A DNA stretch of 64,000 bases from Candidatus Poribacteria bacterium (GTDB lineage: Bacteria > Poribacteria > WGA-4E > WGA-3G): assembly GCA_965215265.1 (NCBI GenBank), contig OZ244048.1:2272001-2336000 (forward strand), in the 5' to 3' direction. Below, piece by piece: positions 5,694 through 32,061 of this stretch. Every line of letters starts with the position of its first letter. Position 1 is the first letter of the stretch. The position numbers were made by a program, and so were the translations under genes. Below the pieces are notes generated by a model. The model was not told where the DNA came from and ran no database searches. It saw nothing but the letters and a program-made list of their open reading frames with translations.

Positions 5694-5953
5694 ACCTAAA
5701 ATAATACCTGATCTGTCTGGGAATGTCAAGAAAAAGGTTAAAGTACAAGCAATAGCGATCCGGCGCTTACTCCGACAGCCAGTCTCCACTCTTCAATCCG
5801 TCTTGCACAAGAAGATAAATCCAACCTGTCCACTCGGTGACAACCCAATAGAGTGTTCTCATACCGTGGCGTATAGATTCCCGCAACTCTCTGTCTCATA
5901 TCCTTTGATGGTATCCTCTTTCTTCACCTTGCTATATTCCACATATTTTTAAT

Positions 5954-6102
5954 TTGACAAACACTTCTTCGTAGGGTATAATTTAAATGAAATAACCTTT
6001 TGTGAAGAGAGCAAAAGTGTTCTTTAAAAGTGAAAGAATGAACGGACGTGTCCGTTGGCAGTTTGTGAATGCACTTGATTTTTTGGAAAGTGACTCACAA
6101 AC
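5954..6102 (+). promoter_or_regulatory. rrn-type promoter + boxA + leader (diverged copy A)
   Basis: TTGACA(5954)-N17-TATAAT(5977), AATAACCTTT, TGTTCTTTAAAA (6018-6029), TGAACGGACGTG, TTGTGAATGCACTT; collinear with 28188-28330. Confidence 0.7.
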
Positions 6103-6248
6103 ACGATTTCCTTTTCTTGAACACCTGTGTGCACGTCTTACGAATTGGCAAAAAAGGTTGAAAACGTAGTCTGTTAGGAAACTTAGTCCGAACTATAAAG
6201 TAAAGTTTATACCCTAACGGGATAAAGAATAACAAGGAGTTAGATAAT

Positions 6249-8129
6249 ATGAAGAGAAGAATGCACCCCCCCCTATATATATTAAGTATTTTAGTTTTAT
6301 TATTCATTGCTGTGCTCTGCATGCCGTCCCACGTACAGGCAGCAGCAGCAGATCAGGATCGCCCGACAATAGCAGCAGATGGATATGAGATAGTTGAGAA
6401 CCCCACTAACCCCGCGGGGCATGCTCTTTATACGCATGTTCGCCAAGGGGCTTTTGAAGCTATGCCAATAGGTTGGGGAGATGTAAGGGCTACCCTCTTG
6501 CCAGGTCGTTGGGGACTCGCTGAGAACAGAGAGCGGGCACAGGCCACATTGGCAGGGCTTGTAAATGCGGAGACCGGTTATACTACTGCTAACGAGGTAG
6601 CTTGGGATGACGCTAGAATGGCTCGACAGTACGGGCCAGGTGATACGATTAAAATTCGCGTGAAGTTCACCAGACCGGTGATAATCCGTCAGGACACGAA
6701 ATTAAACCTAAAGGTGGACCGTGATGTATACATGGACATAGACACAGCGGTGCATGATGAATCCACAGTCGCTCTCGCTTCTGATCCTAACAATCTGGGA
6801 GCTGTATTTATACGGAGCGTCAATGAAAGCGGTAATATTGTTACTGGCAATGCAGCGGATAACGTTTATGTCACCTTTGAATACACGGTACAAGAGGGTG
6901 ACATCAGGGTACAAGGTATAGAGATGTTTGCCTGGGATCGCCCTTTTTTTCGCGACGATGATGGAGATGGTATGTACCATCGTCAAAATGAGAAGCAGAG
7001 CGATACTTTCAATTTGATTCATTCGGCAGCAAATAACGACCATATCTATGTGGGTTTGAACCAGGACCTCGTAAGGGGCACAAAAGCTACCGGTGTTCCC
7101 GATACCGGTACCGCCCCCAATGGAAACTATTTCGGTGCTTTCGTGTGGCCTACCTCTCCTGAGGTTGGCACTGGATTTACCTACTTGGGTCACTCGCTTC
7201 CGAATGGACGCCTTGATCCAGCTGAGACGGATCCTAATCTTTATGCGGTAGATACGTTGCGAGCCGACACGGTCGTCACCCACATCGTTGACGGCATCGG
7301 TGCAAGATACGCACCGCTCAGCACAGCTCATCCAACAATTGGCGATCCCGTAGCGGAGCAAACCGGTGCGTTTGATATAGAAATCAAGTTTGCTAATTAT
7401 CATACGGCAGAAATCTATGCGGAACAACCACGGAGCAATACCTTTGGTGCGGCTGAGATTCTTCTCGACGGTGAAGGCGTGGAACGCGCCGATTGGACGA
7501 TCACCGATGCGGCATTTTATGGCTTGGATGCTGTTGACCCCGGTACTTATAACGCTGAGACTCAAGAGATCCAGGAGAGTGATGATCCTTTTGACGGTGA
7601 GATAAAACACAGTACGCACTATGCTGTCTATCGTGCGACGATTACCCCGCCTGATAATTTTGATGGGGATGTAGCGATATCGATTGCTGAAAACGCTATT
7701 ACAGATCTTGCCGGTAACACGAGCAAGGCATCCGGGAATACGCTGACGGTGCCTGTAAATACAGTCGTCGAGGTGAACATTCCGGATGAGACGCTCCGTG
7801 CGGAAATAGAGGAGACACTCAGCATCGCCGCGGGGACGGCTGTGACCTCGGTAGATATGCTAGGCTTGACAAGCCTAGATTTAGGTGGCTCAGACATTAG
7901 CGATCTGACTGGACTTGAATACGCCACCAACTTGGAAGAGTTGGATCTCAGTGATACACAAGTAGAGGATATTTCAGCCCTAGCAAGCCTCACGAGTTTG
8001 CTAGAGCTGTCTCTCTCGGGAACGCCAATAGAGGATGAGGATATCTCGCATCTGTCAGGCCTTATCAACTTGAAAGTGCTGGATCTCAGTGATACGGAAG
8101 TGTCGGATATCACGCCGCTGTCACAATAA
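6249..8129 (+). CDS. Secreted protein with Ig-like regions and internalin-type LRRs; apparently truncated by an internal deletion
   Basis: Signal peptide; YGPGDTIKIRVKF; ITDLAGN; IPDETLRAEIEETL; LTSLDL..SDISDLTGLEYATNLEELDL repeats. Ends mid-LRR; a QRWATLK motif follows out of frame at about 8133-8175. Confidence 0.8.
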   Translation: MKRRMHPPLYILSILVLLFIAVLCMPSHVQAAAADQDRPTIAADGYEIVENPTNPAGHALYTHVRQGAFEAMPIGWGDVRATLLPGRWGLAENRERAQATLAGLVNAETGYTTANEVAWDDARMARQYGPGDTIKIRVKFTRPVIIRQDTKLNLKVDRDVYMDIDTAVHDESTVALASDPNNLGAVFIRSVNESGNIVTGNAADNVYVTFEYTVQEGDIRVQGIEMFAWDRPFFRDDDGDGMYHRQNEKQSDTFNLIHSAANNDHIYVGLNQDLVRGTKATGVPDTGTAPNGNYFGAFVWPTSPEVGTGFTYLGHSLPNGRLDPAETDPNLYAVDTLRADTVVTHIVDGIGARYAPLSTAHPTIGDPVAEQTGAFDIEIKFANYHTAEIYAEQPRSNTFGAAEILLDGEGVERADWTITDAAFYGLDAVDPGTYNAETQEIQESDDPFDGEIKHSTHYAVYRATITPPDNFDGDVAISIAENAITDLAGNTSKASGNTLTVPVNTVVEVNIPDETLRAEIEETLSIAAGTAVTSVDMLGLTSLDLGGSDISDLTGLEYATNLEELDLSDTQVEDISALASLTSLLELSLSGTPIEDEDISHLSGLINLKVLDLSDTEVSDITPLSQ

Positions 8130-8351: not shown

Positions 8352-9671
8352 ATGAGGCAAACTACCGCACCAGAGACATCCAAACAAACACAAAGCAAAC
8401 GGCAGTTTTGGGACCCTTTCTTCAAAGAGTTCCTCGCGCTGCTGTTCTCTGACCTGGGTGCCTCTATCCAGACAGAGATAGAAGTGAACCGGTTGCCGCA
8501 GCGTATAGATGCACTCGCTCTCCTCGAAAGCGCCGCAGCCCGCGCGAGAGTGCGTGCGAATCCGCTGCTCTCTTACTTACGCACGCATAATCTGTTCGAA
8601 TTCAAAGGGCAGAACGACCCGTTGAATGAATCGGCGTATCACCGGATTTGTATGCGTGCGCGTGGTTATTTGGCAGATAAGCAGGTGCCTGCAACCGAGT
8701 TAACCCTGACGATAGTGTCGTCTCGGAAGCCGCGGGCACTGCTCTCCCGTCCGCCTTTTGGGGAGCCGTGGGAGCCATTGGCGGCAGGGCATTATCGGTT
8801 GATGGATGGCGTGCCGGTGCATCTGTTGGTTTGTAATGAAGTGGAGTTGGTTGAGCCGAATTATTGGTTGCTGCTGTTTGCGTCGTCGCGGAAACAGTTT
8901 CGTGCGTTCCTGCGGCGTGTGATAACAGAAGAGAATAAGTTATATTTTGACTCCGCGTTGTATTTGCAGCCGGAAGTCACGGAGGAGGTTTGTGAAATGG
9001 AAGGACATCAAGATTTCTTTCAGAGTCGTCTTCGCGAAGTTGCGACGACTTTGGGTCCGAAGCTGCTGTCGGCGCTGACATCGGAGGAGCGTGCGGACAT
9101 GCTGTCCCGCTTGAGTCCTCAAGACCGGGCGGATCTGCTCGCACGGCTGCCCGCTGAAGACCGGGCGGACATGTTAGCAAGGCTATCTGCGGCAGAACGT
9201 GCGGATATGTTGGCGAGTTTACCCGCGGCAGAACGTGCGGATATGTTGGCGAGTCTACCCGCGGCAGAACGTGCGGATATGTTGGCGAGTTTACCCGCGG
9301 CAGAGCGTGCGGATATGTTGGCGAGTTTACCGGTTGCGGAGCGTGCGGATATGTTGGCGAGTTTACCCGCGGCAGAACGTGCGGATATGTTGGCGAGTTT
9401 ACCCGCGGCAGAACGTGCGGATATGTTGGCGAGTCTACCCGCGGCAGAACGTGCGGATATGTTAGCACGGCTGCCCGCTGAAGCCCGCACGGACATGCTG
9501 GTCCGCTTGAGCCCTCAAGAACGGGCCGATATGTTAGCACGCCTGAGTCCCGATGAGCGCGTCAAAGGACTCAGCCCCGATGAGCGGTTAGCCGGACTTC
9601 ATTTATCTCCGGCGGTGCGTGCCGAACTCGTGCGGCAGCTGGAGACAGCTGACAATGGGACTGACACGTAA
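8352..9671 (+). CDS. Rpn-like PD-(D/E)XK nuclease/putative transposase with a 12-aa tandem-repeat C-terminal domain
   Basis: WDPFFKEFL N-terminus, RID and NLFEFKG catalytic-type residues, 13 x ERADMLAxLPAA-type units. Confidence 0.75.
   Translation: MRQTTAPETSKQTQSKRQFWDPFFKEFLALLFSDLGASIQTEIEVNRLPQRIDALALLESAAARARVRANPLLSYLRTHNLFEFKGQNDPLNESAYHRICMRARGYLADKQVPATELTLTIVSSRKPRALLSRPPFGEPWEPLAAGHYRLMDGVPVHLLVCNEVELVEPNYWLLLFASSRKQFRAFLRRVITEENKLYFDSALYLQPEVTEEVCEMEGHQDFFQSRLREVATTLGPKLLSALTSEERADMLSRLSPQDRADLLARLPAEDRADMLARLSAAERADMLASLPAAERADMLASLPAAERADMLASLPAAERADMLASLPVAERADMLASLPAAERADMLASLPAAERADMLASLPAAERADMLARLPAEARTDMLVRLSPQERADMLARLSPDERVKGLSPDERLAGLHLSPAVRAELVRQLETADNGTDT
8997..9671 (+). 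CDS. Predicted internally initiated small protein (RpnS-like antitoxin candidate)
   Basis: GGAGGAGG at 8981-8988, 8 nt before in-frame ATG 8997 (codon 216). Confidence 0.55.
   Translation: MEGHQDFFQSRLREVATTLGPKLLSALTSEERADMLSRLSPQDRADLLARLPAEDRADMLARLSAAERADMLASLPAAERADMLASLPAAERADMLASLPAAERADMLASLPVAERADMLASLPAAERADMLASLPAAERADMLASLPAAERADMLARLPAEARTDMLVRLSPQERADMLARLSPDERVKGLSPDERLAGLHLSPAVRAELVRQLETADNGTDT
9087..9554 (+). repeat. 36-bp coding tandem repeat, 13 units
   Basis: GAACGTGCGGATATGTTGGCGAGTTTACCCGCGGCA-type unit. Confidence 0.95.
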
Positions 9672-23893: not shown

Positions 23894-26149
23894 ATGCCCG
23901 AAAAGAAAGAATATAAAGTTATCGGAACCCGGCCGATTCGCCATGACGGCGTTGACAAGGTCACCGGTCGGGCGCTCTACGGCGCCGATTTTCACCTCAC
24001 TGGACTTCTGCACGGCAGAGTCCTTCGCAGCCCACATGCCCATGCACGAATTGTATCTATCGATACCAGCCGGGCCGAAGCATACCCGGGGGTCAAAGGT
24101 GTGGTTACAGCAAATGATCTGCCTACTGCAGCAGACAAAGTCGCAGACCTGGGTGAAGGTGCTGTCAATCTCAAATATCTCTGTGATAATATACTCGCCA
24201 GCGATAAAGCGCTATACAAAGGACACGCTATCGCGGCTGTTGCAGCAACCAGTCCACACATCGCAGAAGAAGCATGTGCACTCATTGACGTTGAATACGA
24301 AGTCCTGTCGCCTGTCCTTGAAGTCCGGGCGGCCATGGAACCCCAGGCCCCGCTTCTACACGAAAATCTCAAGACCAGTTCTATGGGCGAAACCGCCGAG
24401 GCACCGAGCAACGTTGCAAGCCATCTCCAGCACAAAAAAGGAGATATTGAAAAAGGGTTCACCGAAGCCGATGTAGTCATTGAACGTGAATTCGTCACCG
24501 GCACCGTGCATCAAGGCTATATTGAACCACATAACGCAACCGCGCTCTATAACCAGGACGGTCAGCTCACCGTCTGGTGTAGTACACAAGGTGCTTTTAC
24601 CGTCCGTGAACAACTTGCCGAAATTCTCCAATATCCCATCTCCAAGATTAAGGTTGTACCCATGGAGATTGGCGGCGGTTTTGGCGGGAAAATTAACGTC
24701 TACGTTAAACCGATTGCCGCTCTCCTCGCGAAGAAAACAGGCAAACCGGTTAAGGTACTCATGAGTCGCACGGAGGTCTTCGAAGGCACGGGTCCAACCC
24801 CTGCCTCTTACATTCGCGTCAAGATGGGAGTCACCAAGGCCGGCAAAATAACTGCAGCACAGACACACCTCGCGTTTGAGGCAGGTGCCTATCCCGGCTC
24901 ACCTGTCGGTGCCGGTGCTATGTGCATCTTCGCCCCCTACAACATTGAGAACGTTCTCATTGACGGATACGATGTAGTCGTTAACAAACCGAAAACCGCC
25001 CCGTACCGTGCACCTGGCGCTACCAATGCTGCGTTCGGTTCAGAGACTGTCATCGATGAGCTCGCCGAAAAAATCGGCATTGATGCTTTAGAAATCCGTC
25101 TCCGCAACGGTGCTAAAGAGGGAGATCATCGGGCAGATGGACCTGTTTTTCCACGTATCGGCTTCATTGAAACCCTCGAAGCGGTAAAGCAGCATCCGCA
25201 CTACACAGCACCTAACGGAAAGAAACATCATGGACGCGGTATCGCCTCCGGATTCTGGTTCAACGTCGGTTTGCAATCCAGCGTCACAATCAGCGTCAAC
25301 CCCGACGGCACGATTAACCTGGTCGAAGGTTCAACCGACATCGGTGGGACACGCGCCTCTATCGCCATGCAAGCCGCAGAAGTCCTCGGTATCTCCGCGG
25401 AATCTGTCAACCCGACTGTTGTCGATACCAATGCTATCGGTTACACGGCTGTCACCGGCGGTAGCCGCACGACCTTTGCCACCGGCTATGCTGCTTATGA
25501 AGCAGCGCAAGATGTCAAAAGACAGATGATTGCACGTGCAGCCAAATTATGGGATGTCGCCGAAGAAAACGTGCAGTTTGCAGACGGCGAATTCTCATCC
25601 ATCAACGGCAAGGAAGAACAGATTAGTTTCAGGGATCTCGCCGCAAGACTCGGTGAAACGGGCGGGCCGGTTACCAGCAGTGCAGCTGTGAATCCTGCAG
25701 GAGTCGGCGGTGCCTTCGCAACCCACATTGTCGATGTTGAAGTAGACGAAGAAACCGGAAAGGTCGAGATTCTACGTTACACAGCAACACAAGACGCGGG
25801 AAAAGCCATCCATCCGAGCTACGTCGAGGGCCAAATACAAGGTGGTGTCGTCCAAGGCATCGGGTGGGCATTAAACGAGGAATACATCTATAATGCCAAA
25901 GGCGAGATGACCAACGCCAGCTTCCTCGATTACCGAATGCCGACGTGCTTAGATCTGCCCATGATAGACACGGTTATCGTTGAAGTCCCGAATCCCGGGC
26001 ATCCGTACGGGGTCCGTGGTGTCGGCGAAGTTCCCATCGTTCCACCACCGGCAGCCATCGCCAACGCTATTTATGACGCTATCGGTATCCGCATGACAGA
26101 ACTCCCGATGTCACCCGACAGACTTCTGAAAGCGATGGGCAAGATCTAA
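23894..26149 (+). CDS. Xanthine dehydrogenase/CoxL-family molybdopterin-binding subunit
   Basis: KVTGRALY, LRSPHAHA, GGGFGGK, YRAPG, GSRTT, EGQIQGG, GVGE. Confidence 0.95.
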   Translation: MPEKKEYKVIGTRPIRHDGVDKVTGRALYGADFHLTGLLHGRVLRSPHAHARIVSIDTSRAEAYPGVKGVVTANDLPTAADKVADLGEGAVNLKYLCDNILASDKALYKGHAIAAVAATSPHIAEEACALIDVEYEVLSPVLEVRAAMEPQAPLLHENLKTSSMGETAEAPSNVASHLQHKKGDIEKGFTEADVVIEREFVTGTVHQGYIEPHNATALYNQDGQLTVWCSTQGAFTVREQLAEILQYPISKIKVVPMEIGGGFGGKINVYVKPIAALLAKKTGKPVKVLMSRTEVFEGTGPTPASYIRVKMGVTKAGKITAAQTHLAFEAGAYPGSPVGAGAMCIFAPYNIENVLIDGYDVVVNKPKTAPYRAPGATNAAFGSETVIDELAEKIGIDALEIRLRNGAKEGDHRADGPVFPRIGFIETLEAVKQHPHYTAPNGKKHHGRGIASGFWFNVGLQSSVTISVNPDGTINLVEGSTDIGGTRASIAMQAAEVLGISAESVNPTVVDTNAIGYTAVTGGSRTTFATGYAAYEAAQDVKRQMIARAAKLWDVAEENVQFADGEFSSINGKEEQISFRDLAARLGETGGPVTSSAAVNPAGVGGAFATHIVDVEVDEETGKVEILRYTATQDAGKAIHPSYVEGQIQGGVVQGIGWALNEEYIYNAKGEMTNASFLDYRMPTCLDLPMIDTVIVEVPNPGHPYGVRGVGEVPIVPPPAAIANAIYDAIGIRMTELPMSPDRLLKAMGKI

Positions 26150-26220
26150 ATCACGCACTCAGTTGGGCGAGGTATCAGCCTCGCCCTTTTCGCAAAAAAA
26201 ATGCGCTTTAAGGAACCACA

Positions 26221-26502
26221 ATGCCAATTGTAACCATTCCAGCCCTCATGCGCAATCTCACCAACGGGAAAGACAACGTCACCATTCCCGGTAGCACCCT
26301 CCGCGAAATCATCGATAACTTAGAGACTCGCTACCCCGGCATACAAGCACGATTGTGCGAACAAGGGCGCATCAAACCCGGTATTGCTGTCTACGTCAAC
26401 GGCATCCTGACACGGGAAGGAATGCGCGAACGCGTCGACACAGACGCGGAGATCCATTTCCTCCCAGCAATCAGCGGCGGTACCACTAAATTCACAGACT
26501 AA
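26221..26502 (+). CDS. MoaD/ThiS-family sulfur carrier with a 6-aa extension after GG
   Basis: TLREIIDNLETRYPG, VYVNG, IHFLPAISGG-TTKFTD. Confidence 0.85.
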   Translation: MPIVTIPALMRNLTNGKDNVTIPGSTLREIIDNLETRYPGIQARLCEQGRIKPGIAVYVNGILTREGMRERVDTDAEIHFLPAISGGTTKFTD

Positions 26503-26672
26503 ACAATTTTTTTTACTGAAAATCTACGCACAACGCCTATGTACCTCGCGAAAAAAGGAGACACTCATGAACAAAAGCAACAATCCGGATTCAATTATAG
26601 AATCAGGACCTCCATAACCTCGGTGCTGTATATGATAGCACACATTACTTCATGACACGGTTCATTTTTAAC

Positions 26673-26740
26673 GTGACAAACGCATTTTCATAGGGTATAA
26701 TTACAATAACCTTTTACAAAAAAGGCGAAAGTGTTCTTTT
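26673..26740 (+). promoter_or_regulatory. rrn-type promoter + hairpin + boxA (copy B, ends right after boxA)
   Basis: GTGACA-N17-TATAAT-TACAATAACCTTTTACAAAAAAGGCGAAAGTGTTCTTT, nearly identical to 28188-28254. Confidence 0.75.
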
Positions 26741-26943
26741 AGCATTGCCACCGTAGTTACAACTCGCAGAGGGACTGCTATATAATGGGTATAACAGCAT
26801 TGGTTTTCTATCCTATCACAAATATAGGTATGGAAGAAAACCCGTGCGGTATATAAAAGCGGAACGTTTCCCGTTGTCGCATAAAACATCACTGTTTTCT
26901 GGGACTTTTAAGCTAGCACCTCACAACGGATCCAGAACGTGAA

Positions 26944-27240
26944 TTGCCTGACGCTGCTGAGGATACCTATCCACCTCGAGACTGGTACAAAACAGAAGAT
27001 ATAGAGGTGCGCGCCGAGTATTTTTACGCCCAACTCCTCAAGCAATTTGGAGACATTCCAGAAGTTCATACTGTTGGCGAATACAATTTAAACGTTGCAA
27101 AAGGTGTGCCGCAAACGCTTCGTCAAATGGAAGACTACCTTGAAGCAAACTATCATTTCTTTCGGAATGATAAAAATAAAAAAGCCCTCGAAGAATTCTA
27201 TAAGCTAAAAGCATTAGGTGCAACAATGGGTGCTAAATAA
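26944..27240 (+). pseudogene. 5'-truncated paralog of the downstream lipoprotein family
   Basis: YFYAQLLKQFGDIPEVH shared with 27251-28039; no signal peptide or SD. Confidence 0.55.
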
Positions 27241-27250
27241 GGAGGACTTC

Positions 27251-28039
27251 ATGAAAACGCTCAACTTTTTCGGTATCTCTATTTCTTTTATATTCGTTTC
27301 TATCTTCTGCTTAGCTGCTTTTTGCGGATGTGGCGACACGGGAGATGAGTCCGGGCATTCAAGCGTGAGCCTTGTCTCGGGAGATGAGCCCGGGCCCGGG
27401 TGGTATTCAGGAGTGAACCTTGTCTCGGAAGATGCGCCCGGGCAGCCAAAAGAGTCCCCTCTCTCAGAAAAATTCAAATGGCCCGCCGGCACCACCGGTG
27501 AGCTGTGGGAGCTCACAGATGCAGATGTTGCCGAACTGTTAGCGATAACCCCACCTCCAGATTGGCCCCAGACAGCGGACCGCGAGTTGTATAACAGATA
27601 TTATTTTGCCCAACTCCTCAAGCAGTTTGGAGACATTCCCGAGGTGCGCTACGTTATAGCGTTTCTGCGAAAACCAGGAAAAAATGTCACGATCAAGCAA
27701 GCCGTCGCTTATTCTGAAGCCATATACCGTCTCTTCCCGAATCAAGTCAACCTAGAAGCACTGTTAGAAATCTCATCGGCTCTTTCTCCGCCACAGAGGG
27801 ATGCATGGACATGGATGAAGGAAGATCCGGAAGGATACCTGGAACACATAAAAGAAGTATGGCTTATACATCACGGGGATATTCCCGAGATTCACACCTA
27901 TGTGCATCTTCAACTCAAAAGATTGTTAGGCAAACACCTAACAGATGCAGAGCGTCGGGCAAAGAATGCGGCCGCCTTACATCTTCAGAAACTTAATGAC
28001 CAACTTAGGGATGAACGCGATAATGATAATGATGACTAG
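27251..28039 (+). CDS. Lineage-specific lipoprotein with two GDIPE helical modules
   Basis: SD AAGGAGG; hydrophobic signal ending AFCGC; FGDIPEVR and HGDIPEIH. Confidence 0.75.
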   Translation: MKTLNFFGISISFIFVSIFCLAAFCGCGDTGDESGHSSVSLVSGDEPGPGWYSGVNLVSEDAPGQPKESPLSEKFKWPAGTTGELWELTDADVAELLAITPPPDWPQTADRELYNRYYFAQLLKQFGDIPEVRYVIAFLRKPGKNVTIKQAVAYSEAIYRLFPNQVNLEALLEISSALSPPQRDAWTWMKEDPEGYLEHIKEVWLIHHGDIPEIHTYVHLQLKRLLGKHLTDAERRAKNAAALHLQKLNDQLRDERDNDNDD

Positions 28040-28187
28040 ACCTCGTGATGCTTTTTATCCTCGTTGTGAGCCAAGGTGGCTCACTTCGGCTGATGACTCC
28101 TGCCAGCCAATTTACCAAAAGTCAAGGGTAAAAGAATGACAAAAAACAGCACTTTTTTCCCAAAAATCGTCATTTTTTTTGATTAAC

Positions 28188-28339
28188 GTGACAAACGCGT
28201 TTTCAGATGGTATAATTACAATAACCTTTTACAAAAAAGGTGAAAGTGTTCTTTGAAAATTAAAGAGTGAACGTGACGTGCCAATTTACAGCTTGTGAAT
28301 GCACTTCACTTTCAATCAAGTGAAGGTGCCTTTCAATGC
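28188..28339 (+). promoter_or_regulatory. rrn promoter and leader (copy C): -35/-10, boxB-like hairpin, boxA, boxC-like, stem
   Basis: GTGACA(28188)-N17-TATAAT(28211); CCTTTT-ACAA-AAAAGG hairpin; TGTTCTTTGAAAA (28247-28259); TTGTGAATGCAC; directly followed by 16S 5' sequence. Confidence 0.85.
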
Positions 28340-28441
28340 TTTATGGAGCGTATGATACCGGCTCAAGACGAACGCTGGCGGCGTGGATGAGGCATGCAAG
28401 CCGAACGAGAAACCGGGCTTCAGTCCGGTGGAAAGTGGCGG
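28340..28441 (+). rRNA. Decayed 5' fragment (~100 nt) of 16S rRNA (pseudogene)
   Basis: TTTATGGAGCGTATGATACCGGCTCAAGACGAACGCTGGCGGCGTGGATGAGGCATGCAAGCCGAACGAG...ACCGGGC-TTCA-GTCCGGT...AGTGGCGG. Stops before the conserved ACGGGTGAGTAA. Confidence 0.9.
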
Positions 28442-28518
28442 TATTGCGTGCGGCGGGTTACACGTTTTCGGAGATAGGAACAAGTCCGCAATCCCCGAAA
28501 AATAAAGTAGAAAAATCT

Positions 28519-28731
28519 ATGAATCCTATGAATCGAAATATAAGCCACGGCGTGGTAGCACTTCTCATTGTCTGCTTCTTGGGTACATCACTTATGATGA
28601 TAGCCCCTGTCGAAGATACGGACGCATGGCCATACCACGCTTGTTGCGATTGGGAAACTGACTAGTTTGTCAACGGTAGTATTATTGAAGTCTATTGGCA
28701 TTGTGACAACTACTTCCACGGGCACGTGTGA
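28519..28731 (+). pseudogene. Small secreted Cys/His/Trp-rich peptide gene with an in-frame TAG
   Basis: MNPMNRNISHGVVALLIVCFLGTSLMMIAPVEDTDA-WPYHACCDWETD*FVNGSIIEVYWHCDNYFHGHV*; TAG at 28663-28665; hairpin at 28762-28800. Confidence 0.6.
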
Positions 28732-28817
28732 TCCTGCGGTTTTACGTGTCCCTGAAAACGTGAAAGGGCAATCCCTGGCAGAGGTCTGCGATTGCCCTTC
28801 AACTTAGGAGAAAAAGA

Positions 28818-29720
28818 ATGAAAAATGTGATGTTTGGCAGTCTCTGCTTGTTAATCTTATGTAAGTTCTCTGTCCATACCTTTAGCGATGCTGAGAACGC
28901 CCCTCGGCTGACGAACGATCGTTCTTCTCAAAAAGGTTCCCGTCCCTCCCCGCCGCCTCTGGAAGCAATGAGTGACGTGCTTTGGGAGGCATCGCTTGTA
29001 ACGTTTCAGGAGCTCCTCAAGACAGACCCGGAATCTGCACGTGCAGAACTCCAGAACGTCAGCAAAAAACTCTTCAACGGGCATCTGCTCACCGAAGAAT
29101 GGGTGCCGCTCTACTTCCGCATCCGCCACAAAGGTACTGAACATCTCTCAGATGTAAAACGCTTGACGGAATTGGAAATCCGGATGCTTACTGCCATTGC
29201 TATGGAAACAGGAGATTTCCAAAAGTATGCCCTCCAGCTGCAGCGCCTCCAAGAAGCCTATCAAAAGTATGAAGACAGGGAAAAAGTGCAGGAAAACAAC
29301 AACCCCGGACATACCCATGGACATAGCCACGGGCTGCCCCCCAAAACCGGAAACGCTTCACGCGGCACGGAGAGCAACGCAGCAGTCGACGAGCGTGATA
29401 TAGAAGCCGTACGCGTAGAATACCTCTCACGCTTTAAAGCAGAGTTCAACGATCACCCGCTCACCGAAAAAATGGTGGATACTACACTCGCACTCGCGGT
29501 AAAGAAAAAGCCAGAGCTGATCGAACTGACAGCGTTACAAATTCAGATTATGAAGGAGGTAGATGCCGAAAAGTATAAGGAAGAAATTCAGAATGCTGAA
29601 GCGGGGTTAAGAAAACTCCAGAATATAAGGGATTTGCTTGAAAAGCAAGGCTCGCTTGAGACTGAGACAGTCAATTTCAAATTTGACATTAACAAACAGT
29701 TGTCAAGATTGAAAAAGTAA
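28818..29720 (+). CDS. Secreted helical hypothetical protein with a duplicated domain
   Basis: SD AGGAG; signal peptide; FNGHLLTEEW..LTELEIRML and FNDHPLTEKM..LTALQIQIM modules; HTHGHSH linker. Confidence 0.75.
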   Translation: MKNVMFGSLCLLILCKFSVHTFSDAENAPRLTNDRSSQKGSRPSPPPLEAMSDVLWEASLVTFQELLKTDPESARAELQNVSKKLFNGHLLTEEWVPLYFRIRHKGTEHLSDVKRLTELEIRMLTAIAMETGDFQKYALQLQRLQEAYQKYEDREKVQENNNPGHTHGHSHGLPPKTGNASRGTESNAAVDERDIEAVRVEYLSRFKAEFNDHPLTEKMVDTTLALAVKKKPELIELTALQIQIMKEVDAEKYKEEIQNAEAGLRKLQNIRDLLEKQGSLETETVNFKFDINKQLSRLKK

Positions 29721-29888
29721 GCAAGGTGCAGGCGAGAAAGGAAGAGGGAGAGAGAAGGTAGATTATCGTTACCTAAAGGTGACGATAACTTCGTTACTCT
29801 CCCTACCTTACCTATAGGTGACGTAGACTACCGGGGATGCCTGCTTGGAAACAGATGCCGATCATTCTTTGTAAAGGAAAGAAATTGT

Positions 29889-30638
29889 ATGAAAGAACAA
29901 ATAGGAGCAGCCATTGGACTCATAGTCTTCATCTGTGTCGGTTTTTGGGTTTACACGCAGTGGGACCTTAAACGTTTTAAAGAATTGCTGCCCACTCCCC
30001 CCGTGCAGACAGAAACGCGCGAGATAGCCCCTGCACAACAAGCACTCACACCACATGTGCCAACGGAAACCACAGCGCCTGCTAAAACCGCATCCCCGAT
30101 GTGCGACACCGAAGTCGAAACCCGAGAGCACATCGCCGCGCAACCCCCTGAAATTGTGCCTGTTGCGGATGGCACCACAGCGGATGTGGCCCTTGACAGT
30201 TTCTTGGACCTATTTTTTGAAGAAACTCAGTCGGATGCAATCACGTCTGGAGACTTCTCGGATGTTTCCCAGGAAGCCCCCTACGACCAAGCCCTGGTGG
30301 AAAAAGGTTTCGAGGATTACAACGCCTCTCTCGCATTCAATCCTGAATACGCCTACCAACGACTTGATGATGCACTCCGCGAGCAATATGGAGACGACTC
30401 TGATGTTGACATCATTGTTGAGACTGTCCGACGCAGCAATGAGGGGCCCATTACAATCGACGATGCGATTCACCACACAGAGGCAATGATAAGACTTGTG
30501 TCGAAAATCTGTCCCCCTGAAGCCGTCGCAGTGATTGCCGACAATCTGGAATACCTCAGAGAATCTAAACAATTGGCACTTGAAGCTGGAGAGGATACCG
30601 TCCACCTTTTTAACTTTCGTTTTCATGTCGGAGAATAA
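29889..30638 (+). CDS. Membrane-anchored hypothetical protein
   Basis: N-terminal TM, Pro/Thr linker, QYGDDSDVD module. Confidence 0.7.
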   Translation: MKEQIGAAIGLIVFICVGFWVYTQWDLKRFKELLPTPPVQTETREIAPAQQALTPHVPTETTAPAKTASPMCDTEVETREHIAAQPPEIVPVADGTTADVALDSFLDLFFEETQSDAITSGDFSDVSQEAPYDQALVEKGFEDYNASLAFNPEYAYQRLDDALREQYGDDSDVDIIVETVRRSNEGPITIDDAIHHTEAMIRLVSKICPPEAVAVIADNLEYLRESKQLALEAGEDTVHLFNFRFHVGE

Positions 30639-30641
30639 ACC

Positions 30642-31034
30642 ATGAAGTCATTCTTTTATAGCGTCTGTATTATCAGTGCTGTCACAGGTTTCGCTTTTTA
30701 TTGAGGAAAAGGACCCGCAGCCCATCCCAAAACATTACTTGCCGAACGGCATCACGTACAGAAAGAACCTGCAGCAACAGGAATAGAATCCGTACACTCC
30801 ACCGAAACCTCACTCCTAGAGGAAGAGAAAAAAGGCTGTGGGTGCTGTCGTTCTGCATTGGAAAAGGTGAGACAGAAACGCAAGGCACTAGAGATGTGGG
30901 CACGGGAGATGATCGACACGCACGGTTATGAAGAAGGCATGCAGCACGTCACAGCCAAATCCCCGACGTTGGCGAAACGGGTACGGTGCCTCCTTGAAAA
31001 AGAGAAAAAGAGCCGAATCCCTAAGCTTTACTGA
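30642..31034 (+). pseudogene. Secreted hypothetical protein (CGCC motif) interrupted by TGA at codon 21
   Basis: MKSFFYSVCIISAVTGFAFY*GKGP...KKGCGCCRSALEKVRQKRK...LY*; TGA at 30702-30704. Confidence 0.6.
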
Positions 31035-32061
31035 TGGAAGGTTTTCTTTCCATTTACATGATTGGCTGTGGTGGTGATAGCGATGATGGTGAGGGAGAAG
31101 TTCAAGATGCAGCGTTCGTCAGTGCAGCACCAGGCAGTAGCGACCTTGCAGCAAATGCGAGTATTACGGTTACCTTTGACAACGATCCGGGTGCTGTAAC
31201 TGCCAGTGCTGGTGACGTTTCAGGTGCAGAGAAAAGCAGGACAATTTCCAGTCCCTTTACCCTTGGGACACTTGCTCTCGTACACTCTTGGGAAAATGGC
31301 GGAAGCCATACGCTTTTTGTATATCTCCGTACCATCAACGCTTAGGTATTGACAGCTCGTGTGTAAATCTCGTCGGAGGCTCCTGATGTATTGACTCCAA
31401 GAATTACAACATCACAGCACCGGATACTGCTCCTTCCACCGTCACGGACGGTTCCGTTAAAGACGGTGATAAGGTCCATCCTGAGGCGATTAACAGTGAC
31501 GCTAAGATCGAGATTACCTTTCGCGAAGATGTAACCGGTTACATCGCCTTGCAGACTGAAGGCGGCGACGATGTCGGCTGGCTTGGCAAGGTTAAAGGCA
31601 ATAAAGCAACGCTGTACCTGGTGAAACGCCAAAAACTGGACTATAACGTTCCCTATATCATTGTTGGCGAAGTTACTGACGCAGCAGGCAACGCAACCGA
31701 GGTTAACACAGTGTTTAGCACCGCTGTTAAAACCGTCGTTCCTATTGAAATCACGGATGCAACTTTTGATAACATTGTGTTGAATTCTGAGTTTCCTATC
31801 GTAGTTGAATTTTGCGGAGTGTGGTGCCCGTTCTGCCGGCAGATGGGGCCAATTGTCCGCGAAGTTGCATCGGAGCACAGAAAGACATTCGCCATTGCAA
31901 AGTTGGATATTGATTCTAACCAGCAAATTACCAGAAAATATCAGGTGCGTGGAGTGCCAGCGTATATTGTGTTCCAAGATGGTGAAATTGTTGGGCGTAT
32001 TGGGGGAGCACTGCCGAAAGTCAGTTTCGTCCGGGAGGTCCTCCGCTTGATTAGCAATTGA
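31034..32061 (+). pseudogene. Ig-like lipoprotein-thioredoxin fusion disrupted by an 86-bp repeat insertion
   Basis: IGCGG lipobox-like; ITVTFD; removing 31315-31400 restores H-T-L-N-Y-N-I-T-A-P-D in frame with DAAGN and the thioredoxin WCPFC..VRGVP domain. Confidence 0.75.
31315..31400 (-). mobile_element. Single arm of the palindromic repeat family inserted into a CDS
   Basis: TTTTGTATATCTCCGTACCATCAACGCTTAGGTATTGACAGCTCGTGTGTAAATCTCGTCGGAGG matches copies at 52187-52245 and 58484-58680. Confidence 0.8.

Follow-up and report, generated by a model that had tools for sequence, protein, structure and literature searches.

Why should the promoter and antitermination leader of a ribosomal RNA (rRNA) operon, together with the first 102 nt of a 16S gene, stand directly in front of protein-coding genes? 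The question is raised by positions 28137-28440 of a 64,000-nt stretch of DNA (hereafter the window) from a Candidatus Poribacteria bacterium, a member of a phylum of sponge symbionts. The chromosome that holds the window (designated G000) is closed, 4.83 Mb in length, free of N and 48% G+C, and the window corresponds to its positions 2272001-2336000. Based on sequence comparison and gene order, the element, which we refer to as the stub, is very probably a truncated 5' end of the rRNA (rrn) operon that lies at the ancestral site of the 16S gene. With lower, although still reasonable, confidence we favor the fuller statement that the stub is a truncated rrn 5'-end paralogue at that site which is active as a promoter-leader cassette.

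The chromosome has a single 16S gene (G000 2037862-2039412, minus strand; Rfam RF00177 match of 1535 bits) and a single 23S gene (G000 2034133-2037109, minus strand), which are separated by a 753-nt spacer with tRNA-Ile and tRNA-Ala. This intact operon is 260 kb from the stub and in the opposite orientation. Window 28137-28440 is a copy, about 92-94% identical, of the promoter, the boxB/boxA/boxC leader and 16S nt 1-102 of that operon (blastn of the stub region versus the single rrn operon: 92.4% over 316 nt, E = 2e-128), a likeness that, judged from the aligned sequences, is far beyond chance. The homology begins at ~28128-28137 and stops sharply at 28440/28441, and within it the two copies are separated by ~20 differing positions and a 3-nt indel. 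A sequence-only reading of the window had named a GTGACA-N17-TATAAT promoter, a boxB-like hairpin, boxA, a boxC-like element and ~100 nt of 16S with an abrupt end; all of these are where it had placed them, the end of the match is as sharp as described, and the leader is indeed related to that of the intact operon. The 16S identity of the stub rests on the alignment to the organism's own 16S, since Rfam calls no small-subunit (SSU) rRNA in the stub: there was no SSU match in the window at Rfam gathering scores, nor at E <= 10 over 27900-28900, and no Rfam family reached its gathering score anywhere in the window. The candidates at E <= 10 on 27900-28900 (rpsL_ricks, two miRNA families, SurC and Fluoride) were far below their gathering scores and were set aside as noise.

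The individual elements of the leader bear the marks of a true rrn leader. The promoter matches 11 of the 12 consensus positions, is homologous to the organism's own rrn promoter and has a predicted start near 28223; its T>G change in the -35 hexamer is derived, because the true rrn leader and the other rrn leaders aligned have TTGACA. Over 32 leaders, 98.7% of the 224 cells of the boxB stem pair, versus 46-69% for slid controls, and two of the pairs have compensatory changes on both sides (A-U to G-C; C-G to U-A). The boxA core, GTTCTTTGAAA, is the same as in the true rrn and 30 other Poribacteria rrn leaders, with a last base, A, that is specific to the stub (G in the 31 other aligned rows). 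In the boxC region CTTGTGAATG is present, CTTGTGA(A/G)TG being kept across rrn leaders, and the block TTGTTCTTTGAAAGTTAAATAGTGAACGTGACGTGCC is nearly invariant among the true leaders. Four sites of the 16S part had been considered odd in the sequence-only reading. Three of them are specific to the stub, GAGCGT (GAGAGT in the true 16S), CTCAAG (true CTCAGG) and the TTCA loop (true TTCG), but the fourth, GCCGAACG, is normal in the organism's own 16S and in all other Poribacteria 16S compared.

Given that misjoins typically occur at rRNA operons and repeats, the join of the stub to its neighbors might be a collapsed or chimeric connection of an rRNA contig end with an unrelated region. Logan contigs from four runs of four studies were compared with window 26000-31000, using a criterion of 31 nt past the junction. 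In each of the four runs the short-read contigs are interrupted around 28145-28434, for X2 and X6 in repeats, and one contig (X7 record 31; 28272-28462) ends 22 nt beyond the junction, short of the criterion. However, contig X5 record 14 (1928 nt), from an independent study, covers 28225-30152 with 0 differences and bridges the junction, the chromosome is closed and without N, and the ~20 positions and the indel that distinguish the stub from the true operon show that they are different DNA. Since a contig of another study crosses 28440/28441, there is no chimera, and we rejected an assembly artefact as highly improbable. The earlier view of the stub as an old copy and not a misassembly was thus correct in that the copy is genuine, but the copy is not old or decayed, being 97% identical in the 16S part and ~92% in the leader. 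Some bacteria are known to have large insertions in their rRNA genes, and the stub could in principle be the start of a functional 16S with a very large insertion and the rest of the gene further on. Downstream of the stub, which has only 16S nt 1-102, there is no full-length 16S and no trailer partner for a leader-trailer helix, Rfam recognizes just one 16S, and blastn of the full operon in G000 finds only the intact operon and a 27-nt 16S fragment at 4.489 Mb. With no more 16S or 23S pieces in the whole genome, an interrupted 16S was rejected and is given almost no credence.

An indication of what the stub is comes from the genes upstream of it. The stub starts 2.0 kb downstream of the genes for a molybdopterin-binding oxidoreductase subunit and a ThiS-family protein (Table 1). 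The closest relatives of the 751-aa oxidoreductase, with 86-92% amino-acid identity, are all from Candidatus Poribacteria metagenome-assembled genomes, and in 39 of 68 Poribacteria-like loci (a lower bound, as several unmatched loci end at contig borders) a co-directional 16S is situated 0.4-4.8 kb downstream of this gene, the match beginning in the leader in 30. No such 16S was identified downstream of the oxidoreductase in the 12 loci from other phyla. In a sister species (G001; same genus, closed 4.0 Mb) orthologues of the oxidoreductase (92%) and of the ThiS-like protein (78%) likewise precede the rrn cluster. Because relatives keep a full 16S after the same flanking genes, the stub is best understood as the remnant of a 16S unit at its old place. 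The proposal of the sequence-only reading that an rrn expression cassette had been recruited to this operon consequently has to give way: since the stub is at the ancestral 16S position, a rearrangement scar is the first explanation of the locus.

How the operon moved can be partly reconstructed. The intact G000 operon has directly upstream of it a 351-aa gene and fragments with homology to a 577-aa open reading frame (ORF) of G001; in G001 itself, the homologues of these ORFs immediately precede a truncated leader copy at 3460112. Un-inverting G000 2039312-2300440 would restore the order oxidoreductase, ThiS-like, promoter, 16S, 23S, so that an inversion between inverted stubs is one conceivable path. 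We propose that the stub originated through recombination among duplicated 5' ends of the rrn operon, of which the genus has an abundance. The ancestral copy may have been truncated in place after duplication of the operon, an older truncated cassette may have swapped flanks with the ancestral operon, or a circle may have been excised and reintegrated, which would give the same end state as the other paths. Recombination of an older truncated cassette with the ancestral operon fits, because the un-inversion would restore the ancestral gene order. A simple in-place deletion from an arrangement of 16S followed by the 300-aa gene that is now downstream of the stub was considered and is unsupported, the homologues of that gene not being near an rrn leader in G002, G004 and G012. 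Most genes of the G001 rrn cluster are without a clear orthologue in G000.

The junction itself has the appearance of a scar. The filler that follows the 16S part comes from an ECF-sigma-like gene family, with ~8 similar bases overlapping the end of the 16S, and has 92-97% matches inside ORFs at G000 2878258, 3555461 and 1072427, the ORF family scoring 25.1 bits with Pfam Sigma70_ECF versus a cut-off of 21.1. Judged from these matches, at nt 102/103 the filler and unique unrelated sequence have taken the place of the 16S body, as in illegitimate recombination.

Table 1. Positions in the window of the stub, of related leader copies and of neighboring genes
Feature	Position	Strand	Description and basis
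Subfamily-A cassette	5939..6135	+	Promoter, boxB, boxA, boxC, leader-trailer hairpin, no 16S; nhmmer
Aldehyde oxidase/xanthine dehydrogenase-family molybdopterin-binding subunit, 751 aa	23894..26149	+	Pfam MoCoBD_1 (6e-70), MoCoBD_2, Ald_Xan_dh_C
ThiS/MoaD-family protein, 93 aa	26221..26502	+	Pfam ThiS, 2e-9
Type II leader copy	26661..26777	+	GTGACA-N17-TATAAT (promoter 11/12), boxB hairpin, GTTCTTTTA; nhmmer, G000 2298661-2298777
A/T-rich upstream region	28137..28187	+	Aligns with sequence upstream of the true rrn promoter
Sigma-70-type promoter	28188..28216	+	GTGACA (28188-28193), N17, TATAAT (28211-28216), TG before the -10
boxB-like hairpin	28224..28241	+	7-bp stem, 28224-28230 with 28235-28241: ACCUUUU, loop ACAA, AAAAGGU; minimum free energy fold
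boxA	28247..28259	+	TGTTCTTTGAAAA
boxC-like element, then leader hairpin	28293..28329	+	TTGTGAATGCAC (28293-28304); alignment to true rrn, fold
16S nt 1-102	28339..28440	+	99/102 identical to own 16S; includes helix-6 hairpin, loop TTCA not TTCG
Filler at junction	28441..28478	+	38-46-nt fragment of ECF-sigma-like gene family, C-terminal helix-turn-helix region
48-aa ORF, hydrophobic N-terminal half	28519..28665	+	Reality as a gene uncertain
300-aa protein, signal-peptide-like N-terminus	28818..29720	+	AGGAG 8 nt before ATG; first solid gene downstream
249-aa protein, N-terminal membrane anchor	29889..30638	+	No Pfam match

The stub is not the only truncated rrn copy in the genus. Relatives had been suggested as a place to look for rrn leaders that are not followed by a full 16S, and in the sister species truncated copies are indeed present. 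Its rrn locus (L029-L030, 3428-3468 kb) is a 35-kb mosaic in which 6.4 kb separates two full 16S genes, both with small-membrane-protein genes behind them, and which also contains at least five partial promoter/leader/16S copies and two joins of the promoter to tRNA-Ile; many genes of the cluster encode hydrophobic N-termini, and the 23S is ~17 kb beyond the 16S, at the far end of the cluster, behind its own rrn promoter copy and tRNA-Ile. The truncated G001 copies end at 16S nt 49, 148, 167, 167, 185 and 415, and because these points vary, with no fixed junction, they point to a recurrent mutational process. When each genome was searched with its own leader, 26 matches were obtained in G001, four in G004 (the leader itself and three promoter pieces of 45-72 nt) and two in G016, the latter two genomes representing other genera. 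When the stub was the query, 28 of the 31 relatives' genomes had a match, with 23 in G000, 15 in G001 and 0-2, at their own operon, in the others. Based on these searches the expansion of the leader is genus-specific.

An A>C change (CGT where the true 16S has AGT) and the GTGACA -35 are common to the stub and two truncated G001 copies, the context of the former being GAGCGT in the stub and G001_1688k and GCGCGT in G001_3452k. Because these two changes are shared, the sequences hint that the truncated lineage is older than the split of the two species and has been partly homogenized with each genome's own operon.

Within G000 the true leader belongs to a sizeable family. Single-sequence nhmmer with the true leader identified 23 places in the chromosome, and two profile iterations raised this to 28 and then 31. 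Fourteen non-rrn copies are complete (promoter, boxA and boxC), namely the stub, a copy at 2786132 and 12 copies that we refer to as subfamily A. Three further copies, designated type II, have the promoter, the hairpin and GTTCTTTTA but are without boxC, and about eight are promoter-only ("type III") matches with E = 1e-10 to 1e-12 in the iterated profile. The latter may share only the constraints of a promoter and UP element and are not counted as firm homologues. One type II copy is in the window, 94% identical to 28183-28254, and is ahead of the genes for 98-aa and 273-aa "FGDIPEV" paralogues. All non-rrn copies point at co-directional ORFs, except for two without an ORF by the criteria used. 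Sequence of the 16S outside the true gene is limited to the stub and a 53-nt fragment at G000 4489018-4488966 (minus strand).

The most numerous group, subfamily A, consists of 12 copies that over 191 nt are 84-100% alike; a search of 21 genomes detected them in G000 and in no other. Their sequence after boxC aligns with the true spacer 65-99 nt past the 16S 3' end, just before tRNA-Ile (27/35 identical; local score of 30 versus 14.5 +/- 2.2, with 0 of 500 mononucleotide shuffles as high), and the boxC strand (GUUUGUGA) and the trailer piece (UCACAAAC) form a local hairpin. A subfamily-A cassette therefore resembles a 16S-less rrn mini-operon, as if the 16S had been removed between the two strands of the leader-trailer helix. 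A large ORF is 163-340 nt downstream in 11 of the 12 copies and 1197 nt downstream in the twelfth (3214757). For the copy in the window this ORF (6249-8129), 166 nt away, encodes a 626-aa protein with leucine-rich repeats (Pfam LRR_4, 1e-15), and by eye only, the other ORFs headed by subfamily A resemble this gene or two other N-terminal types. With respect to what accompanies these genes, a repeated 330-450-aa gene starting MRQTTAPETSK (8352-9671 in the window) follows at least seven of them; in the window copy, Pfam recognizes MgtE_N repeats (4e-25) over the C-terminal half and nothing over the initial ~230 residues. The leader, the large secreted-protein gene and the MRQTTAPETSK gene may duplicate as a block.

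Use of the stub as a Nus-type expression cassette is plausible in view of its sequence features: the promoter would fire near 28223; the nascent boxA would recruit NusB/NusE, with NusA, NusG and other factors, onto RNA polymerase; and the modified polymerase would cross the untranslated 300-600 nt without Rho-dependent termination and enter the 300-aa and 249-aa genes. The stub would then belong to a set of rrn-derived cassettes, specific to the genus, that stand at the head of secreted-protein genes, and the number of rrn promoter/leader copies that precede such genes lends co-option indirect support. The chromosome encodes both NusB (G000 29276-29650) and Rho (G000 2059887-2060129). The boxA of the stub is on the sense strand ahead of co-directional ORFs at 28519, 28818 and 29889, with no terminator-like site between, and specifically no intrinsic-terminator-like site was found on the plus strand over 28216-28818. 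The suggestion that the leader is fused to co-directional genes for secreted products held up to the extent that the products have signal-peptide-like or membrane-anchor-like N-termini. Across the family, a hydrophobic N-terminus (an uncharged hydrophobic 15-residue window in the first 70 residues) was identified in the ORF after 21 of 30 non-rrn copies, with seven negatives and two copies without an ORF, in comparison to 998 of 3188 for the control of all ORFs >= 200 aa, although this heuristic is crude, the ORF calls are mechanical and the seven negatives stem partly from start calls, all of which counts against placing much weight on the comparison.

A number of further observations weigh against an active cassette at this locus. 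Near boxA the stub has GAAAG>GAAAA and TAAATAG>TAAAGAG changes at positions where the other rrn leaders never vary (26 leaders in one set of alignments, 31 other rows in another), and the T>G change in the -35 and three changes in the 16S part are also at positions invariant in the other rrn leaders compared. Taken together, the derived changes look like relaxed constraint. The TAAAGAG change permits a weak hairpin (-3.4 kcal/mol; window 28249-28267) in which boxA pairs with the bases after it and would be occluded; the true leader is without that hairpin. This T>G is in 13 of the 14 complete non-rrn G000 copies and in none of the true leaders, and it may reflect shared descent, relaxed constraint or tuning. 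The 48-aa "peptide" ORF just downstream has no relatives by tblastn, whether in G000 or in the loci that were fetched, and is not preceded by a Shine-Dalgarno-like sequence. The 300-aa gene starts ~600 nt from the predicted transcription start, could be served on its own by a promoter-like site at 28658-28685 (9/12) and is not an rrn neighbor in the three other genera compared. Unrelated fragments are pieced together at the junction, which is the pattern that a scar would leave. Lastly, subfamily A represents one recruitment with recent expansion of a gene family and not 12 independent events, as the copies are recent duplicates, 84-100% alike and limited to G000.

Several of these observations would be predicted if the stub were a neutral scar, that is, debris of a rearrangement of the rrn locus whose promoter may fire but is unselected, with the downstream genes using their own promoters. 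The derived substitutions at otherwise invariant leader and 16S positions, the patchwork junction with a sigma-gene fragment and the weak promoter-like site ahead of the 300-aa gene all agree with such an origin, as does the mini-fragment at G000 4489018-4488966, and the cutting of the G001 rrn fragments at varied 16S points suggests a mutational process rather than design. What is difficult to reconcile with a neutral scar is that the promoter hexamers and their spacing, the boxB stem and the boxA core are all intact, that no terminator-like site has come between the stub and the genes, and that subfamily-A copies, with the one exception at 1197 nt, are at so short and fixed a distance (163-340 nt) ahead of secreted-protein genes. 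Furthermore, both paralogous 300-aa operons have promoters of this class: the second gene, for a 58%-identical paralogue at G000 2958545-2959354, has a TTAACA-N17-TATAAT promoter ~100 nt ahead of it. On balance we consider a neutral scar less likely, and we retain the active promoter-leader cassette as the favored, if still provisional, account of the stub. As a single locus the stub is a rearrangement relic, and it is the wider family of cassettes that is the interesting part.

The stub might alternatively act as an RNA, if the leader and 16S start were a small non-coding RNA that mimics the beginning of pre-16S and titrates Nus factors, early ribosomal proteins or processing nucleases. The predicted 5' RNA of the stub (-98.1 kcal/mol) is more structured than shuffles (z = -3.3, 0 of 100 as stable), several truncated copies in two species keep the first 100-185 nt of 16S, and the CGT change and GTGACA -35 that the stub has in common with two truncated G001 copies could be read in this way. 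Yet high structure is expected of any rRNA-derived sequence, the stub is not followed by a terminator or a conserved 3' end, the truncation points vary among copies and no known RNA family matches, making a non-coding RNA very improbable.

More broadly, we tentatively suggest, while regarding it as possible and not as probable, that the rrn promoter and its Nus-dependent leader have become a portable expression cassette in this genus, either retaining a 16S stub or with the 16S cleanly excised between the strands of the leader-trailer helix, which heads families of secreted host-facing proteins including the leucine-rich-repeat protein. If this were the case, the output of symbiosis factors would be tied to the growth-rate control and Rho resistance of ribosome synthesis, and the same duplication process would be the route by which 16S and 23S became unlinked. 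To our knowledge, the cassettes would, if active, be the largest known natural set of protein genes under a complete rrn promoter and antitermination leader. They would also extend Nus/boxA control well beyond rRNA, suhB and CRISPR arrays, offer a specific way in which sponge symbionts could express eukaryote-like proteins at high levels coupled to growth, and supply a stepwise route, through promoter-leader duplication, to fragmented, "unlinked" rRNA operons. On a practical note, stubs of this type can act as a starting point for misassembly in metagenome bins and lead to false calls of a partial 16S.

The stub is a relic of a known element, and the cassette family adds to a known kind of control by boxA and Nus factors. 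Published work describes boxB, boxA and boxC in nascent pre-rRNA (PMC10250234) and recognition of 8 nt of BoxA by the NusB-NusE heterodimer (PMC3177189). The stub resembles the E. coli-type rrn antitermination leader (boxB-boxA-boxC; NusB/NusE/NusA/NusG/SuhB/S4) in the order of its elements after a strong sigma-70 promoter, in having the boxA core of its own rrn operon and a conserved hairpin, and in the presence of NusB and Rho genes. It differs in that 102 nt of 16S are followed by protein genes with no trailer partner and that two substitutions at invariant positions flank boxA. Protein genes controlled by BoxA are also known. The passages on BoxA regulation in Baniulyte et al. (2017; PMC5725501) describe BoxA-dependent control of suhB, predict further targets and extend Nus factors beyond rRNA in many species; Poribacteria are absent from those passages. 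As described there, the suhB-type boxA is within ~50 nt of the start codon, represses translation and promotes Rho termination. The stub is comparable in that its boxA is in the 5' untranslated region of a protein-coding unit, but it is a whole promoter-leader module with boxA ~270 nt before 28519 and 560 nt before 28818, and its expected effect would be anti-termination.

Re-use of an rrn-type boxA for the protection of a long untranslated transcript reportedly has a counterpart in CRISPR arrays, where, according to work attributed to Stringer and colleagues in 2020, a boxA upstream of the array is said to prevent Rho termination. In those systems boxA alone is reportedly re-used, whereas here it is the whole promoter-leader with pieces of 16S or trailer, and the targets are protein-coding. 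Truncated remnants of rRNA genes (pseudogenes) left by operon loss are a general phenomenon, and the stub conforms to it as a 5' 16S piece at the syntenic site of a lost gene; it is unlike such remnants in keeping a complete promoter and leader, in being co-directional with genes and in belonging to a family of ~30. Our literature search found no paper on truncated 16S or rRNA operon remnants with a promoter, and none on rrn promoter-leader copies ahead of Poribacteria protein genes (subscription journals and supplements were outside the search).

Unlinked rRNA genes are widespread according to the preprint by Brewer et al. (10.1101/705046), and its text has no mention of Poribacteria, leaders, antitermination or RNase III and a single, unrelated passage on promoters. 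The sister species fits that description, with its 16S and 23S ~17 kb apart, protein genes between them and a 23S behind its own rrn promoter copy. What the present loci would add is promoter-leader duplication as a route to unlinking and the spread of such copies to protein genes.

With regard to the genes downstream of the stub, no Pfam family was identified for the 98-, 273-, 48-, 300- or 249-aa products. Homologues of the 300-aa protein are encoded in 9 of the 21 genomes. A distant homologue in G001 (26-31% identity) is part of a co-directional string of genes behind a promoter-leader-16S(1-415) copy. From N-terminal resemblance, as assessed by reading, the 249-aa protein belongs to a paralogue family that is next to rrn leaders here and in other genera. 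The Atlas search gave no usable match for the 300-aa protein, and for the 249-aa protein it gave matches no higher than 0.78.

Several observations were made on the repeated sequences in and around these loci. The gene pair behind the type II copy of the window (26944-28039) is duplicated at G000 2629-2631, 2696-2699 and 2911-2914 kb as 98- or 215-aa plus 273-aa genes that share a "...QLLKQFGDIPEV..." motif, and a type II rrn-like promoter/leader stands ahead of each pair. Between window 28000-28145 and G000 2630875-2631020 there is 100% identity. The fragment at G000 4489018-4488966 consists of the last ~25 nt of the leader and 16S nt 1-27; downstream of it come a degenerate rrn promoter spacer copy and then a gene for a membrane-anchored protein of a family that is found directly after 16S in locus L065, from another genus, and in G001. 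In the spacer of the intact operon, between tRNA-Ile and tRNA-Ala (G000 2037296-2037605), a 174-nt stretch recurs at 136-nt offsets with 98% likeness, an offset that implies ~3 tandem units, and each repeat unit has a TTGACA-N17-TATACT promoter-like site. A second boxA-like GTTCTTTGACAA is located after tRNA-Ala, ahead of the 23S. Finally, an ~85-nt element at window 31314-31400 has hundreds of matches in the genome at 75-99% identity, often in tandem at ~87-nt spacing (for example, G000 4413272, 4413359, 4413446 and 4413533), and could code for a repeat of ~29 residues or be a dispersed repeat.

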